Virus record (IMG/VR): IMGVR_UViG_3300036546_000248
Length of the DNA stretch: 64,000 nt
Source of the DNA: a virus
Taxonomy: Duplodnaviria > Caudoviricetes
Strand: one strand, 5' to 3'
Of the stretch, positions 17,240-60,771 are shown one piece after another. Each line of letters opens with the position of its first letter. Positions within the stretch are counted from its first letter, which is position 1. The notes beneath the pieces are model-generated. The model was given only the letters and a program-made list of their open reading frames with translations, did not search any database and was not told the DNA's origin. The position numbers and the translations under genes are program-made.

Positions 17240-19429
17240 TTACGGAGTTACGGCAACGACGGTCTGACGGTTCTTCAGTACCTTGTCCAGGTTCTTGACC
17301 TTGATGCGAGCAGCGACCGGAACGTTGTTCACGTGCAGGTTACGCGGCTGAACCATGGCCTCTGGGTAGGTACCGCCATCACGAGCAACCATCATGCTGG
17401 AAGCCAGTTCCGGAATCCACGCGTGAACGCCCCACTGCAGCGGGTCACCGGCTTCACACTGGCCGTCACGGGTCAGAGCGATGACGATGGTGTCGTCCAT
17501 ACGGGAGTCGAAGGTCGACTCGATCTGGTAGCTGGCGAACGCGATACCGAAGGTACGGCTGTCGCCGGTAACCATCAGGTGACGCTGCAGCAGTACGTCG
17601 GTACCGATCAGCAGCTTCGGCTGGTTGGAACCGTTGCTCGAGGCATTCAGCGCAGGCTGGAAGCCGGAAGCGCGGTACATGCGGTAGGACACGTCACGAA
17701 TGGCGTTGACCAGCAGAGCGTTGACGTCGGCCGCGCGGTCGATATCACGGATCGAGCTGATCTCTTGTTCCATGTCGATTTCGATGTCTTCGAAGAACGG
17801 GCTGACCAGGAAGCCACCCACACCTTCCACCGACGGCAGGCAACCTTTACGCTGAACGCCACCAACGTACTCTTTCAGAGTGCTGATGTAGTTGAGCAGG
17901 CGGGTCACGGCGTTGTTGGTGTTACGAACGCGAACGGCGTCGATCAGGCTTTCCAGGTCACGCGCATCGCGGTTGGAACCGGCCGGGCTCGGAGCAGAGA
18001 TCGGCGCACCCAGCGGGATGGTGTAACGGAAGACTTGATCGTTGTGGTCGAGCAGCAGACCACGGGTACGACGGTTGCTGTTGGTACGGGCAGCTTTCAG
18101 CTCGTAGCCGAGAACCTGCGAAGAAGCAGTCAGGGCTTGAGCGATGGTGCGGCCAGCGCCGGAGGCCAGGCTGATTTCGTTACCGTCTTCGTCGACGATC
18201 GAAGCCACGTTCACCTTGGAGGCGAACAGTTCAGCGTTACCCAGCTGCACGTTGACGGTACCGGTCACGTTGACCGACAGACGAACGGTGTAGTTGGCAT
18301 CACGAACAGCTTGCAGAACAGCCGGAGCAACGCCAGCAACGTCGGTGGTGTTCTTGTCCAGGACCAGGTCCTGAGTACGGAACGCCAGCGCCATTTCACG
18401 GCCGTCGCCTTCAACCGACTTCACGAAACCGGCACGAGCCAGACGCAGAGTGTTGAAACGAACGATGGTCGGAGCTACGTTGTTGGAAGCGTCGCCTTCG
18501 TCGAGTTGCACGTACAGCTTCTCGAGGCTGATGGCAGCGTCGATGGCATCGGTGTGATCGATGAAACCAGCGCCCAGCAGGCCCGGATGGCTGGACAGAC
18601 CCAGCAGGTCAACCTGCTGACCGATCAGCAGAGGAGCGGTAACGACGTCGACATTGCCGATACGGCGAGTGGTCGGTGCGACCAGAGCTTCCGGAACGAA
18701 CTTGTCGGCGTTGCTGCCGTTGGTCAGAACAGTCGGGATCAGCGCGGTGCTTTCGTCGGCCAGGATGGTGGCGTCGATAGCGGCGTGAACCAGGTTCTTA
18801 CGCTGCCAGTCGCTGCGGTTACCGCTGGACTGGTGCTGGATGGCGTTGTGCACGAGGGTGCGGCGCAGGTGGACTTCGTAGCCGCCCTGGTCGGGGCTGA
18901 CGACGGTAGTCGGGTAGAACATTTCGGAGAAGCTGTCCTGACGGGACGCTTTCACGTTGAAGGCGATCGAGTACGGGATGAACTTGGCCAGTTCACGCTC
19001 GTCGAACGCTTCGAGGGACGGAGTTTCGCGGACGTCGACCGAACCGGCGGCACCGGAGGTAGCAACTTCCAGACGCTCACCACCTTCAGCAGGAGCGGAG
19101 CGCAGAGCGATGTCGGCGTACTCGGCAGGTGCGCCAGCGGCCATGGCAGCGATGGCACCAGCTTCCAGTTGCGCGTCGGTCAGCTCTTCGCCAGCTTCGT
19201 CGCCTTCCATGGAAACCGACAGAGCGTTCTTGATTTCGCCTTTCAGCATGTCGGCAGTGCGGGTCAGTTCGCCCAGGGAGGCCGCGTCCAGCGATTCCAT
19301 GCTGATCACTTGTTGGGTGATCTGACGGGAGCTGAGGTCGGTACCTTGCGAGTCGATGGTGCTGCGCAGAGCGCCTACAGCAGTGGCCAGAGCGGAACCC
19401 TGTCCGGATTTCGAATTGATACGAGACAT
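17240..19429 (-). CDS. Major capsid protein (phiKZ gp120-like)
   Basis: 729 aa; propeptide with ISME/VSME/PSLE protease sites; strong codon bias; RQDSFSEMFYPT and ARTNSNRRTRG motifs; adjacent to DnaB as in phiKZ. Confidence 0.85.
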   Translation of the reverse strand: MSRINSKSGQGSALATAVGALRSTIDSQGTDLSSRQITQQVISMESLDAASLGELTRTADMLKGEIKNALSVSMEGDEAGEELTDAQLEAGAIAAMAAGAPAEYADIALRSAPAEGGERLEVATSGAAGSVDVRETPSLEAFDERELAKFIPYSIAFNVKASRQDSFSEMFYPTTVVSPDQGGYEVHLRRTLVHNAIQHQSSGNRSDWQRKNLVHAAIDATILADESTALIPTVLTNGSNADKFVPEALVAPTTRRIGNVDVVTAPLLIGQQVDLLGLSSHPGLLGAGFIDHTDAIDAAISLEKLYVQLDEGDASNNVAPTIVRFNTLRLARAGFVKSVEGDGREMALAFRTQDLVLDKNTTDVAGVAPAVLQAVRDANYTVRLSVNVTGTVNVQLGNAELFASKVNVASIVDEDGNEISLASGAGRTIAQALTASSQVLGYELKAARTNSNRRTRGLLLDHNDQVFRYTIPLGAPISAPSPAGSNRDARDLESLIDAVRVRNTNNAVTRLLNYISTLKEYVGGVQRKGCLPSVEGVGGFLVSPFFEDIEIDMEQEISSIRDIDRAADVNALLVNAIRDVSYRMYRASGFQPALNASSNGSNQPKLLIGTDVLLQRHLMVTGDSRTFGIAFASYQIESTFDSRMDDTIVIALTRDGQCEAGDPLQWGVHAWIPELASSMMVARDGGTYPEAMVQPRNLHVNNVPVAARIKVKNLDKVLKNRQTVVAVTP

Positions 19430-20180: not shown

Positions 20181-21713
20181 ATGGACTTCAATATTTTGCT
20201 GGTTCAGGTGATTACCCTTTTGTATCGGGAAAGTCAGCTGGACAACCGGACGAGTAACTCTGCCGAATTGGCGAATACCGTCGTAGGTACCATCAAGCTT
20301 CCTGACACCACCGTAGAGATGGATCGTAGTCGCGATACCTTGGTCTCTCTGCGCAGCACAGCCTTGTGGATGATCGGCAACCCGCCGACACAGGACTACG
20401 ATCGCGGAATGCTGCTTCAAAGGATACGTGTAAACGTTGGTGATGACGAGTATCTCTACCAAGCTGTGGAGATGGCCACACAAGACCTTCCTGACATCGG
20501 TGCTGTTAAGAAGGCAGTGCTCGAATACCGTGCTTCGCTGAACTCGTATGTCAACCTGGCAGCGGTTGAGGAAATCCTCAAGAACAACTACCACAAGCTT
20601 GCTTTTCATCGCGGTGCCATTGGACGAGACTTCGTAGGCGAGATTGTCACGGCCCTCGAACCTTACCAAGCCGGTACAGGTGCTATTGCTAACCCTGCCA
20701 TCGTTGGTGAAGCCGACCTTGATGACATGGAGAAGGTACTGGCTCTGTTGGAACAGTCGCGTGATGAACTGTCCAACGAAGGTATCCTCAAAACCGGTTG
20801 GCAAGCGATCAACCGGATGTTTGGTGATCAGGACGGTGCACGGCGCGGTGAGCAGATTCTGGTAGGTGCACTCCAGCACAACTACAAAACAGGTTTTACC
20901 CTGAACCTGTTTAAGCACTTCTGTATCTACAATAAACCGTACATGCGTGACCCTTCCAAGAAACCGATGGGTGTGCACATCTCGGCTGAGAACAACCTCA
21001 ACGACAACATCATGCAGCTCTACGTCTCGCTTCGTGAGAACGAAACCAAAGAGCCGGTGGTGTTGCGTGAGGTGGATATCGACTATGCCTCCAAGTACGT
21101 TAAGGAAAAGCTCCAGGAGACGGGTTACTCCATCCGGATGCTTCGGGTAGACCCCAGCCTTTTCACGTACCGGGACTACATGGACTTGATCACTCGCTAC
21201 GAGTCCGAAGGCTACGAAATCCACTTCTGTGTGTTCGACTACCTGAACATGATCAACAAGAAGGGTTGTCAGCAAGGCCCGCACGGTTTTGAAACACGTG
21301 ATCTGTTCCGGAGGATGCGTAACTTCAATACCCCACGAGGCATCACCTATATCACACCACACCAGTTGTCGACTCAAGCCAAAGAACTCGTACGTTCCAA
21401 CATCGAGAACTTTGTCCAAGAGATTGCCAACAAAGGTTACTACGACTCCTGCCGGACGATCGACCAAGAAGTGGATATGGAGATTGCGATCCACATCGAG
21501 AAGATGAATGGTAAGAGCTACCTGACTGTACAGCGAGGTAAGCACAGAAAGTTGGGGGTGACTAAGAACGAACACCTTTACACTGTACTTAAGTTTGAAC
21601 CTGTAGGGGGAGGAATACCCGACGACATTAATGGACCCGATATGTCTCTAAGAGCAGTTGGCGGAAGCGCCGTATCTTCAAGCGAACAGACTGACACTTG
21701 GTGGGCTAACTAA
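20181..21713 (+). CDS. dnaB: DnaB-like replicative helicase (phiKZ gp118-like)
   Basis: Divergent Walker A GALQHNYKTG, Walker B CVFDYLNM, ITPHQLS and QRGKHR motifs. Confidence 0.85.
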   Translation: MDFNILLVQVITLLYRESQLDNRTSNSAELANTVVGTIKLPDTTVEMDRSRDTLVSLRSTALWMIGNPPTQDYDRGMLLQRIRVNVGDDEYLYQAVEMATQDLPDIGAVKKAVLEYRASLNSYVNLAAVEEILKNNYHKLAFHRGAIGRDFVGEIVTALEPYQAGTGAIANPAIVGEADLDDMEKVLALLEQSRDELSNEGILKTGWQAINRMFGDQDGARRGEQILVGALQHNYKTGFTLNLFKHFCIYNKPYMRDPSKKPMGVHISAENNLNDNIMQLYVSLRENETKEPVVLREVDIDYASKYVKEKLQETGYSIRMLRVDPSLFTYRDYMDLITRYESEGYEIHFCVFDYLNMINKKGCQQGPHGFETRDLFRRMRNFNTPRGITYITPHQLSTQAKELVRSNIENFVQEIANKGYYDSCRTIDQEVDMEIAIHIEKMNGKSYLTVQRGKHRKLGVTKNEHLYTVLKFEPVGGGIPDDINGPDMSLRAVGGSAVSSSEQTDTWWAN

Positions 21714-21726
21714 AGTCGGCATAAAC

Positions 21727-21753
21727 GAGGTCTTCCCCTTCGGGGGAAGCCTC
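21727..21753 (+). terminator. Helicase terminator (UUCG loop)
   Basis: GAGG-CTTCCCC-TTCG-GGGAAG-CCTC followed by CCCTTTTATG. Confidence 0.7.
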
Positions 21754-21779: not shown

Positions 21780-22060
21780 GCGGCATAAAAGTTATTCCGA
21801 CCACTAAGCCTACGGGTGCACTCCGCGCTTAGTGGTCGGTCTAACCCCGTCACCTAACAACACCCGCGCACAAAAGCTGGGTATAGGCTTGACGGCTGCT
21901 CACTGACTTGACGGGTCAGAAGCGTTCTCGTTCGTCCCCTGAGTGTCAATTCAGGGCACACGTTAAGCGCTCTTAGGCGCTGAAAGGGCTTTCGTAACCC
22001 TCACCACCTGCACGATGAGTCAGTGATGGAGCGTATCTTTAACACTCATTAAAAACCCCA
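21780..22060 (-). ncRNA. Candidate structured non-coding RNA A (about 280 nt)
   Basis: No ORF; 13-bp perfect IR 21797-21809/21827-21839; 9-bp long-range stem 21900-21908/22018-22026 enclosing three hairpins; AAAAATTAC middle-promoter-like motif upstream; TTTTATGCCG downstream. Confidence 0.45.
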
Positions 22061-22101
22061 CAAAAGTAATTTTTTACAGAATTGGGTAAAAGTATACTTT
22101 T

Positions 22102-22680
22102 TTTGACCATTAGTTTGAGAGTAATGTACTCTCTTCACTTAAGGTACCCCCAGTACCATAACCTAATCAAGCTTCGTGCTTGCGTATCGGACTAACCACT
22201 GTGAATAATCACAACGTCCTGAACGGGTGTGACTGTCGCCAGCAGTCACCAAAGACCCCGTTTGAAACTGGTTTAGCTCGTAACACCGTAACACCCTTCA
22301 CTGTCGCTGATCGTCAGCAAACCTCTCACGAGGGTTTTCTCAGTGTCGCGTTGTTCCTCTTGATCGGCGATCTTTCTAATAGAACCGTTCAGTGTGGGAA
22401 AACTGCAATTCATCGCGGTTTGGTAACTTTGTTGTTTAAGACAAAGCCTCTCTTTAAAGTTCTCTCCAACCAGAACTTTAGTCGGGTTTTTAAAAGTGTT
22501 CAGTTGGGCGTTGGCCGCAAGTCGCGTGTACTCTCTACACCTATTGTCGCAGCGTTCTACGCAGGTTCTTATTGTGAATACCTCACAACGAGTACCAACC
22601 GGTAACGATAGCGCCCCTGCCACAGGGCCACCCTTAGGAGGACTCCCGTGTAGGGAGCCTCCAAGGGATCGTTATGCCGC
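22102..22680 (+). ncRNA. Candidate large structured non-coding RNA B (about 570 nt)
   Basis: More than 10 hairpins and nested stems; only unconvincing ORFs; ends in a 15-bp interrupted stem 22631-22667 followed by TTATGCCG. Confidence 0.45.
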
Positions 22681-23067
22681 TTATTTTCCAAAGCCTTTTA
22701 TGCCGGCAGAGCTAAAGAGCCGTTTGGTACTGTAGTAACCAAAAGCTCGACCACTGTACCCGTGGCTTTTTGGCAGTGAGACTTCCACCACCATCAGTCC
22801 TTGATCGTCAAAACGACGTTCAAGCATCTCCCCTAAGCTGACAATGAAGTCGACTTCGCGGTGTTTGAGTTCAGAGAACAGGCTGTCACTGACATACAAG
22901 CAAAAGCGTTGGCGGTAGTATTGACTGTCATTCTTCACCCGGTAGGTGACATAACCACTACAGCTCTTCTCAATGTCATCCTCAATATCAGCGATGGGCA
23001 TGAAAATCGTGTTAGGTAATACTTGAATAACATCGCCGTTCTCCACCATAGCGTCCAATGTAATCAT
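22681..23067 (-). CDS. Hypothetical protein
   Basis: 128-aa ORF with GAGGT RBS. Confidence 0.6.
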   Translation of the reverse strand: MITLDAMVENGDVIQVLPNTIFMPIADIEDDIEKSCSGYVTYRVKNDSQYYRQRFCLYVSDSLFSELKHREVDFIVSLGEMLERRFDDQGLMVVEVSLPKSHGYSGRAFGYYSTKRLFSSAGIKGFGK

Positions 23068-57186: not shown

Positions 57187-57760
57187 TGTCCTTACCTCCG
57201 CGTTTATCAACCATGTCCGTAATGGCGTGCGCCAGCGCATTGTGGGTATAATCCACTTTTGGCATTTCAGCCTGCTCTTGGGACGCACGTCGACGAACAC
57301 TACGACGACTGTTGAGTCGATCCAAGGCGTTGAACAGCTTGGAATTGGTCGGTTGGGTTTCCATGTACATCCGAGCCATGGGGAAGAGCTGTTCGGCGAA
57401 CTCTTCCAAGGTAGCCAGGTCCTCTACCGGTGCATCGCGACGGTTGGGGTCTAACAACAGAGCATCGTGCCAGTCACTGATATGGTCCCGAATCCATTCA
57501 TAGATCTGTTTGGAATCATCGGGGTTGATCAGTGCAATCTGGGCACCCTGGCGGGCTTTATCCGCCATCTGCGCAACCGTCAGACGCGCAGGAACAGGAG
57601 CGTTCATACGTCCGTTGTCCACAGCATCATCCATCGAGGTGTGCAGGCCGAAGTGTTCGGCAAACGATTGGTCGATCAGATACAGCTGTGGGATCATGCA
57701 ATCGACGTAGTATTTGAAGATCTTTTCGGCGGGGGTGTGCCCAGGTTTTTCGATGATCAT
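57173..57760 (-). CDS. Conserved hypothetical protein
   Basis: 195 aa, coupled to both neighbours. Confidence 0.6.
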   Translation of the reverse strand: MIIEKPGHTPAEKIFKYYVDCMIPQLYLIDQSFAEHFGLHTSMDDAVDNGRMNAPVPARLTVAQMADKARQGAQIALINPDDSKQIYEWIRDHISDWHDALLLDPNRRDAPVEDLATLEEFAEQLFPMARMYMETQPTNSKLFNALDRLNSRRSVRRRASQEQAEMPKVDYTHNALAHAITDMVDKRGGKDSAGE

Positions 57761-59170: not shown

Positions 59171-60677
59171 GGAGATCTTCCTTCGGTCGGACGATGATGC
59201 TGTAACTACCCACAGTCCGCATCGTTGCTTGTCGACTGGTGCGATCAAGGAGTTGTTGAAGCGTCTTACGGGGCAGTAATTTATCGCCGAGCAGTTTAGT
59301 GTCTTTGGGGTCGATGGACTTTTGCGGGTAAAGTACCTTAACCAAATCCAGCGCCAATTGACCATGTTGACGCAAACGTTCCAACGCCTGAGGACTCAGG
59401 ATCTTAAGATCACAGATAGTCATCACCACGTGGTACATTTTACGAGGATCGAGGTCGACTGTGGTTCTCACATTCAGATCGGCGTCCACTGTCAAAACCG
59501 TCTCCTCCATTCGGGTGTCGCCATTGAACAAATGGAGGTTGAAAACAGTCTGTGCAGGCAGATTCAAGTACCGACACTCGTCTGAGAGAAACGCCAGAAC
59601 TTGTGGTGTGAACTCGTGTGTACCCAACTCCTTAAGACTGAACAACTCACGAGGGTCTTCAGGATTAACACCCATCAACAACGTCAGTACTGGGTACATG
59701 TTCTTAAACTGGGTAGTGGCAACCCAGTCATCGTACTCCGGAATGCGTACACCTTTAAAGGGATAGAGTACATCGGTGTACAGACGTGTGAACTTGTCCA
59801 AGTGACGACGTTCATCGTTCGGTCGGCGGGCGATGTTGGCCAGTTCGTAGGTCAATTTCTCTTGACGGTACTTCTGATCCACCACTTGGTTGTGGACAAC
59901 AATCGGGTAGCGCATCGCACAGGCCACAGGCTTGTCGTACTGGAATCGGTATTCAAACCCGATCTCCCAAGGAGCCCCTTCATTCGCAGCACCGCCTTTG
60001 TCGGGCTGGGCCATAAAGTCAAACCAGCCGATGACCCCTACCTGACGTTCAGCCATGGACAACAGTGCACCGCGCCCCGCTTGGTTAGTAACCGAAACTA
60101 CCCGAGGACTGAAGTGTGCTCGTAGGTATGATTTCAGATCTTCTCCATAACCGTACTCGGCTTCTCTCATTCGCCACAGTTCGCGCAAGATGAGTAGTTC
60201 GGCCTTAGGGAGGGGGTAGTGGTAGTCGAACTCGTGCAAGAGTTCCTGTTGGCCTTCAGAGACCTTCAAACGCATCCGATCTCGCCACCGTAGGGCGCTG
60301 GTGCGATCTGGTGCTCGGTAGCGGAAACTGATCGCTACCTCTGTCCGTACATAGACGGGTTTGATGTGAATACCCAGTACCGGGTCTGAGAAAATGAACT
60401 GTTCGTTCGGTTTACGAACCGCGGTGGTGAGGGTACGTTCTTCAATGTACTCCTCCTCCACTTCTACATAAACCCGCCCAGTGAAGCCGTACTTGTTTTC
60501 AGCAGTAGGGTCCATGGGACTGGCCGATTGGTATTGTGCTTCAGTGGCGCCGTAATAATCGATCCCGGTGTCTTTAGGCAACCCCATATAAGCTACCAGG
60601 TCTTTGATCATCTGAACGCACACTGGTCGAGTCACCGAGTTATACGTCTCGGGGATCTCAGAAACAATGTTGGGCAT
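59157..60677 (-). CDS. phiKZ-like virion structural protein
   Basis: Start MPNIVSE (AGGAG RBS); 506 aa. Confidence 0.65.
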   Translation of the reverse strand: MPNIVSEIPETYNSVTRPVCVQMIKDLVAYMGLPKDTGIDYYGATEAQYQSASPMDPTAENKYGFTGRVYVEVEEEYIEERTLTTAVRKPNEQFIFSDPVLGIHIKPVYVRTEVAISFRYRAPDRTSALRWRDRMRLKVSEGQQELLHEFDYHYPLPKAELLILRELWRMREAEYGYGEDLKSYLRAHFSPRVVSVTNQAGRGALLSMAERQVGVIGWFDFMAQPDKGGAANEGAPWEIGFEYRFQYDKPVACAMRYPIVVHNQVVDQKYRQEKLTYELANIARRPNDERRHLDKFTRLYTDVLYPFKGVRIPEYDDWVATTQFKNMYPVLTLLMGVNPEDPRELFSLKELGTHEFTPQVLAFLSDECRYLNLPAQTVFNLHLFNGDTRMEETVLTVDADLNVRTTVDLDPRKMYHVVMTICDLKILSPQALERLRQHGQLALDLVKVLYPQKSIDPKDTKLLGDKLLPRKTLQQLLDRTSRQATMRTVGSYSIIVRPKEDLHADS

Positions 60678-60771
60678 GGTTAACTCCTTGGGTTGTGTAG
60701 TGTCAACCACACGTTTAGTCTAAGCCATACCATACGCGGCATAGGAGGAGGGGCTAACCCCCCCTCCTTAC

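Follow-up and report, generated by a model that had tools for sequence, protein, structure and literature searches.

The stable RNAs C and D of phage T4, which lie in a tRNA cluster, are accessory phage RNA genes. Other structured RNAs encoded by phages include ROOL (RF03087), GOLLD (RF02032) and OLE, which are 600-800+ nt long and of unknown function, ROOL being non-essential (Kretsch et al., 10.1101/2024.12.08.627333). ROOL and GOLLD form oligomers by way of kissing loops, some of which are palindromic (10.1101/2024.12.08.627333), and kissing loops are the likely assembly points of all three RNAs. The phi29 pRNA, which is essential for packaging and contains a three-way junction, has two stem-loops that share four complementary bases (PMC7357161). 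In nucleus-forming jumbo phages few non-coding RNAs have been described, the ones known from phiKZ and 201phi2-1 being for the most part short leaders or 3′ fragments. One of them, the structured phiKZ 5′UTR-p40 RNA of about 180-196 nt, was confirmed by northern blotting (Gerovac et al., 10.1101/2020.12.06.403469) and lies in the non-coding gap that immediately follows the DnaB operon. Here we describe RNA1, a free-standing gene for an RNA whose fold is backed by covariation and whose ends are predicted, in a 64,000-nt stretch of the viral record IMGVR_UViG_3300036546_000248 (hereafter the window), which belongs to a jumbo phage of the phiKZ-like, nucleus-forming kind. Judged from sequence comparison, RNA1 is very probably a genuine RNA gene of the minus strand, predicted to be non-coding, and its natural alleles provide a ready mutational scan.

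RNA1 (21787-22047, minus strand) converges with the gene of a DnaB-like replicative helicase of the phiKZ gp118 type (20181-21713, plus strand; phrog_3213, E 7e-171), for which the nearest cultured phages show merely 45-50% identity. DnaB is separated from the following gene (22681-23067, minus strand) by 967 bases, the largest gene-free gap nearby; RNA1 fills its left third, adjoining the DnaB terminator. The major head protein gene (17240-19429) lies 2.4 kb away on the same strand as RNA1, and normally no same-strand gene follows RNA1 downstream. The phiKZ 5′UTR-p40 RNA is a positional parallel only: it lies on the DnaB strand as the 5′ leader of a gene and has two stem-loops, unlike RNA1, and neither the covariance model of RNA1 (R1) nor sequence comparison gave a match to phiKZ. 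The shared position suggests that this neighbourhood is often home to RNA genes. In phiKZ this gap (114629-115313; L292:6630-7314) is 685 nt long and rich in hairpins, of which the first 180-196 nt alone have been described as a non-coding RNA, and it has a short motif of the AAATAAA-GCCC-TACGGG-CGATCC type in common with the corresponding gap of 201phi2-1 (L293:8780-8830). Two more long gaps in the window, at 59586-60771 and 57241-57760, lack an ATG-started frame of 70 codons.

To compare alleles, syntenic loci were collected through the helicase and its downstream gene, yielding 14 distinct full RNA1 alleles, and every phage that supplied one has a DnaB identity of about 90% or higher; RNA1 is about 260 nt long in the window and 225-260 nt in the relatives. 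Across these alleles the minus strand forms a string of nine local helices, P1-P9, in which 97.3% of 994 cells are paired, compared with 32-46% in slid-partner controls. Two-sided changes were found at 21 pairs versus 7.9 in shuffles, counts that overstate the independent events because the alleles are few and related, the structure moreover having been derived from the same alleles. P1, P5 and P6 each show at least three independent pair types, and a single allele, L054, supplies a large share of the signal from P2 and P9. Folding alone cannot assign the strand, since the z scores against shuffles are equally strong on both (-4.75 minus, -4.79 plus; still -3.4 when the 3′ hairpin is left out). 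The wobble cells, 81 G-U versus 3 A-C, identify it as the minus strand, and the consensus energy is -86.9 on that strand versus -60.6 on the opposite one. Furthermore, 105 of 258 columns are invariant, when the four-fold sites of DnaB are merely 40-49% identical between the most distant alleles; on this comparison RNA1 is under purifying selection. No conserved reading frame was found, the allele lengths differing in all three phases. A 9-codon frame starting at AUG 22049 overlaps the predicted start, has no ribosome site that is conserved and, in L054, is shifted, and a GUG frame at the base of P5 changes phase between alleles; both were rejected. RNA1 has its own promoter and terminator, a covarying structure and no conserved frame, as an independent gene would. 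Provided that the gene is real, the local-hairpin fold derived from these alleles is almost certainly its structure.

From the predicted +1, the transcript would begin with P1 (22029-22047), a 5′ hairpin with a variable loop that is 100% paired and shows two-sided changes in two of its five pairs. P2 (22002-22028; 99% paired, 2 two-sided changes) presents a 10-nt loop, ACUCAUCGUG (22011-22020), in which all ten positions are invariant. P3 (21986-22000) and P4 (21966-21981) are short hairpins with variable loops that are rebuilt differently in L054. P5 (21929-21962) is a variable stem of 9-10 bp on an invariant 3-bp base, with two-sided changes at four pairs; it retains UGAC in its loop (21945-21948) and measures 26-27 nt in all alleles. 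It is joined by an invariant, purine-rich linker, AGAAC (21924-21928), part of the invariant AACGAGAACG, to P6 (21898-21923), an 8-9 bp variable stem with two-sided changes in five of seven pairs, whose 7-nt loop retains GUCA (21909-21912) and whose length is 24-26 nt throughout. P7 (21847-21895) has an invariant 5-bp base and an upper part that can be dispensed with (about 14 to 50 nt across alleles), and P8/P9 (21790-21846) form a long 3′ hairpin containing a 13-bp repeat (z -6.75; 6 two-sided changes in the stem), with invariant apex pairs and an apex loop that retains the palindrome GUGCAC (21816-21821). The loops of P1, P3 and P4 and the top of P7 are thus free to vary, and the linker AACGAGAACG, the P7 base and the P2 loop are fixed. 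The P5 and P6 stems are nearly randomised, only 10-15 of about 32 bases being identical with pairing kept, and this divergence is seen even where the neighbouring gene of the phages is 98% identical; RNA1 modules are exchanged between close relatives and lineages. Helices that keep their length but not their sequence, together with complementary loops and invariant joints, typify an RNA that acts through its tertiary shape.

A preliminary description of this DNA had proposed a minus-strand structured RNA of about 280 nt, and an RNA of about that size is borne out by the 14 alleles, the covariation and the strand bias. All the repeats and motifs that it named lie at the positions given: 21900-21908 is the exact reverse complement of 22018-22026, and the hairpins CCCTGA/TCAGGG (21937-21956), AGCGC/GCGCT (21966-21981), AGGG/CCCT (21985-22001) and CTGAC/GTCAG (21903-21919) are present. 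The fold assigned to them is a different matter. The 9-bp long-range helix, said to close a multi-branched junction, has all its pairs in 3 of the 14 alleles and retains 3-5 of the 9 in the others, 66% of cells being paired overall; covariation, the check that had been suggested, favours the local hairpins P1-P9, whereas the long-range helix stays at shuffle level with one two-sided change versus 1.1 in shuffles. Its lack of conservation follows from its 3′ arm being the 3′ strand of P6, which covaries with the 5′ strand of P6. The CTGAC/GTCAG hairpin, taken to be the alternative state of a switch, is in fact the conserved one. For the window allele, calculation does give the long-range fold the lowest energy, 3 kcal/mol below that of the conserved fold with loop-loop contacts left uncounted, which accounts for the first reading. 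The preliminary description thus found the right object with the wrong fold, and the long-range helix is a coincidence confined to this allele or, at most, a misfold peculiar to it.

As to transcription, the same description had noted AAAAATTAC (22066-22074, minus strand) as a phiKZ middle-like promoter pointing into the RNA, a reading that is supported. The element belongs to a middle-type promoter (22062-22077, minus strand) consisting of GTAA, an A/T run, TAC and TTTT, with a spacer of 17-18 nt to TG(+1), and its A-run and TAC are invariant across the alleles. An inverted copy of the element lies at 22086-22101 on the plus strand and would drive a divergent neighbour, RNA2, so that window positions 22062-22101 hold back-to-back copies of a single promoter class. 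The element common to both genes reads GTAA, an A/T run, TA(C/T) and TTT, followed 17-18 bases after TAC by TG and then AG. When the matrix was trained solely on RNA2 promoters, the 22047 site ranked third of 263,018 positions, and the site of rank 2 stands directly before a gene. The support for the promoter comes from its positional conservation, since the word AAANNTTAC alone occurs at chance level (6 found versus 7.5 expected). The putative RNA1 promoter fits the middle motif of phiKZ, in which TACT follows an A run some 22 nt upstream of the start (PMC8244752). From the matrix and the first base of P1, the RNA1 start is predicted at G22047; in both RNA1 and RNA2 the predicted +1 G is the first base of the first hairpin. 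Further matrix-predicted promoters lie, relative to the window, at 79442, 15362, 54554 and -34471 (minus strand).

For the 3′ end, the perfect 13-bp inverted repeat (21797-21839) followed by the tail TTTTATGCCG (21781-21790, minus strand) had been taken as the terminus, and tail enrichment supports this, the exact position being inferred. The form TTTATGCCG (21781-21789, minus strand) is typical of the terminators of this phage. The window contains 9 copies where 0.43 would be expected, and 16 of the 17 TTTATGCC sites of the contig lie between genes. RNA1 would accordingly end at P8/P9 plus the U tail. The claimed convergence on the helicase terminator was likewise upheld: beyond this end, a hairpin at 21717-21753, assigned to neither strand, carries a second minus-strand TTTATGCCG and, by fold and motif count, acts as a two-way terminator after DnaB that shields DnaB from read-through. 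The loop of this DnaB terminator varies freely among relatives.

RNA1 is an accessory gene of a narrow clade, dispensable in close relatives. It is missing already at 82% DnaB identity (L056, L278), where the DnaB terminator abuts an AT-rich spacer, and in sister phages of 63-66% DnaB identity its slot holds 3-5 small same-strand genes; the phages without RNA1 retain the same neighbourhood. One of the small genes in the slot (L059:4940-5275, L066:4961-5326) gives weak winged-helix matches below the Pfam cut-offs. Inside the clade, R1 found a single copy per genome. It gave nothing better than E 0.17 in a further 45 jumbo-phage records, among them phiKZ, 201phi2-1, RAY and six genomes of the sister clade (one complete), and no homologue was found among about 215 pattern-matched loci. 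DNA-pattern scans of viral, metagenome and genome contigs returned the known clade and chance matches alone (for the metagenomes, among the matches listed), blastn against cultured phages and plasmids gave no meaningful match, and no cultured clade member or known host was found. The contig L307 was rejected as a homologue, having only the P9 apex in common (10 bits, E 0.1); the intergenic hairpin concerned (L307:462-503, minus strand) lies in an unrelated 88-kb viral contig and has a 16-nt identity with the P9 apex of L054. The window gave no match to Rfam 15 at the gathering threshold, the families considered including ROOL, GOLLD, OLE, 6S, SRP, RNase P, tmRNA, ribozymes and riboswitches; in searches of three alleles at E 10, generic hairpin matches alone were seen (10-22 bits versus thresholds of 35-87), with none for L054. 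Literature searches returned no account of RNA1. RNA1 is judged real and new as an RNA family, matching no catalogued one.

Two features of the loops bear on what RNA1 might do. The P5 loop UGAC and the P6 loop GUCA are exact complements of four invariant bases each, a match whose chance of arising among the loop pairs we estimate at about 1 in 25, and a fifth pair would be U-A or U-G in 10 of 14 alleles and a mismatch in 4. The four pairs are invariant in all 14 alleles, so that the contact is a candidate without covariation; from the sequences we regard a P5-P6 kiss as probable. The same four-base arrangement between two stem-loops is seen in phi29 pRNA, and the Neurospora VS ribozyme presents a UGAC loop of the U-turn type that faces a GUC loop, the I/V kiss pairing U696-G697-A698-C699 with 630-632 (PMC4138328). 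The loop motif is all that RNA1 has in common with the VS ribozyme, as it lacks the conserved cleavage loop and an A730-type loop. The P9 loop offers the GUGCAC palindrome found in the apical loop of the HIV-1 dimerisation initiation site (PMC7357161); in RNA1, however, its 3′ flank is C, versus the purine required in HIV-1, and the context is unrelated. The chance that any of four invariant loops would contain a 6-nt palindrome is roughly 1 in 8 by our estimate, and dimerisation through GUGCAC is a tentative proposal. The P2 loop could pair with the linker AACGAGAACG; both are invariant, and this pairing is likewise a candidate only. Mimicry of an anticodon loop was considered and not adopted, since U at position 2 plus a purine at position 6 occurs only in the P5 loop.

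The reading that we favour, with slightly less than even confidence, is that RNA1 acts in trans, with a kissing-loop core and perhaps as a dimer, by binding a protein that it sequesters or scaffolds; taken by itself, an end function as protein-binding decoy or scaffold has about an even chance of being right. The non-virion RNA polymerase of the phage would start RNA1 at G22047 from the middle-type promoter and stop at the P8/P9 hairpin and U tail, and the transcript would fold into the string of local hairpins that the covariation shows. The length-fixed P5 and P6 stems would position their loops for a UGAC-GUCA kiss, round which the P2 loop and the invariant linkers would pack into a compact core, and the GUGCAC palindrome might join two molecules. 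The folded or oligomeric RNA would then act by its shape, neither pairing with messages nor switching, and would tie up or scaffold a protein in mid to late infection. The likeliest partner would be a host factor involved in translation, RNA decay or defence against phages, as suggested by the slot, which carries small accessory genes in sister phages; RNA1 may thus exemplify an RNA in a host-interaction job. What favours a trans-acting, protein-binding RNA is that no gene lies downstream and neither a seed target in the phage nor a reverse transcriptase, Ro60 or tRNA partner was found, and that RNA1 is dispensable and its modules are swapped. No reverse transcriptase (PF00078) was found in four genomes, one of them complete, which led us to reject a retron or DRT RNA. 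The complete relatives have no Ro60/TROVE gene, nor does RNA1 have the tRNA-like domain of a Y RNA, and no tRNA genes occur in G000-G003, of which G001-G003 are jumbo-phage genomes of 221-223 kb, one complete. As regards type III antitoxin mimics and RNA anti-CRISPRs, which would show tandem units of 34-45 nt or a CRISPR-repeat-like unit, RNA1 is single-copy and has no tandem units.

The same loops could serve an assembly made of RNA only, in which UGAC and GUCA pair between molecules and GUGCAC joins dimers, giving rings or cages with no dedicated protein partner. Two complementary four-pair loops plus a palindromic loop are the parts that such an assembly needs, both contacts have precedents in the four pairs of pRNA and the GUGCAC of the HIV-1 site (PMC7357161), and the major capsid gene is near and on the same strand. 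As in ROOL, GOLLD and OLE, the product is a phage-encoded structured RNA whose loops would be compatible with such contacts. Nevertheless, RNA1 is far smaller than ROOL and GOLLD, being a hairpin string without a proven pseudoknot network, and differs from both in having neither a tRNA island nor a match to their Rfam models; the C after the palindrome departs from the flanking purines that the HIV-1 site requires, and a role in packaging would be essential, yet close relatives lack RNA1. We consider RNA-only assembly unlikely, and a pRNA of the phi29 type was rejected, RNA1 being absent at 82% and 63-66% DnaB identity and having no proven junction. A new ribozyme or ligand-binding RNA, with a pocket docked by the kissing loops, would explain why about 60 invariant bases cluster at the base of P5, in the AGAAC linker and where P6 joins P7, and could draw on the resemblance of the loop pair to the I/V kiss, of U-turn type, in the VS ribozyme (PMC4138328) and on a possible L2:J5/6 pseudoknot. 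This too is decidedly unlikely, given that no Rfam ribozyme or riboswitch matched even at E 10, that P6 has no conserved internal loop of the VS cleavage-loop kind, and that there is neither a downstream gene for a riboswitch nor an intron context. Alignment inspection excluded a VS or hairpin ribozyme proper, the internal mismatches of P5 and P6 being variable and AGAA and GUCA not contiguous. A combined reading, that RNA1 belongs to a new class of small self-assembling or catalytic RNAs in which a VS-like kiss and a DIS-like palindrome build a defined oligomer or active pocket, stands in for accessory proteins in a host-interaction slot, neutralises a host defence or translation factor and forms half of a back-to-back RNA gene pair, is likewise unlikely.

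A small RNA that pairs with host or phage messages through the invariant P2 loop or the linker as seed would account for the CAU, the complement of a start codon, within that 10-nt loop. We found no perfect complement elsewhere in the genomes of three relatives, one-mismatch sites were at control level and matches to E. coli rRNA were of chance length; the constraint, moreover, falls mostly on structure, and a base-pairing role is improbable. T4 origins of replication use middle promoters, and the adjacent helicase, the AT-rich spacer (22050-22115) and the middle-type promoters would suit an origin in which the divergent transcripts prime as R-loops or the hairpins act in single-stranded DNA. 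That reading is quite improbable, as the cumulative GC skew of the partial genome has no turn at the locus, the neighbourhood is unchanged in relatives without RNA1 and a double terminator closes the transcript. Hairpins are abundant in phiKZ-like spacers, and the locus might hold only terminator hairpins and decayed intergenic DNA; nine covarying helices, the strand bias, the invariant loops and an own promoter speak against this, as does the adjacent true DnaB terminator with its freely varying loop, making the absence of an RNA gene very improbable. Finally, a switch between a multi-junction and a local hairpin, mutually exclusive and both functional, can point to two folds within 3 kcal/mol of each other in the window allele, with the long-range one as minimum. 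That helix is incomplete in most alleles and does not covary, there is no expression platform, and with no gene downstream on the minus strand a switch would have nothing to control; as a conserved feature it is largely refuted, a functional pair of folds is extremely improbable, and a riboswitch was rejected because the alternative helices are not both conserved.

Exchange at the locus has a possible agent. In L274 (3098-3823, minus strand), and likewise in L275, a freestanding GIY-YIG/I-TevI-type nuclease gene lies right behind RNA1, between its 3′ end and a replaced DnaB terminator, and it is absent elsewhere; it comes after the terminator of RNA1, and so does not supply the gene that a riboswitch would need downstream. 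In T4, segB, a freestanding GIY-YIG nuclease beside the RNA genes, can spread flanking alleles (PMC2330249), and the nuclease here could similarly drive allele exchange at RNA1. The T4 RNAs C and D themselves are about half the size of RNA1 and show no sequence or model match to it.

The divergent neighbour RNA2 (22117-22690, plus strand) is about 570 nt long, has covarying hairpins and is more widely conserved than RNA1; the longest stretch of complementarity between the two RNAs is 8 nt. RNA2 has UNCG-type loops and 38 pairs with two-sided changes, and most of its alleles contain a long stop-free frame on the plus strand. In the relatives at 82% DnaB identity, which lack RNA1, it is shortened to about 420-450 nt. 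In sister phages of 63-66% DnaB identity, the RNA2 position is a gap of 650-700 nt (L059:5583-6277, L061:5648-6293, L066:5916-6613) with common 5′ and 3′ motifs, which may represent either a distantly related RNA2 or a gene of low conservation. These gaps carry an early TATATTAC promoter in the opposite direction, pointing into the small genes.
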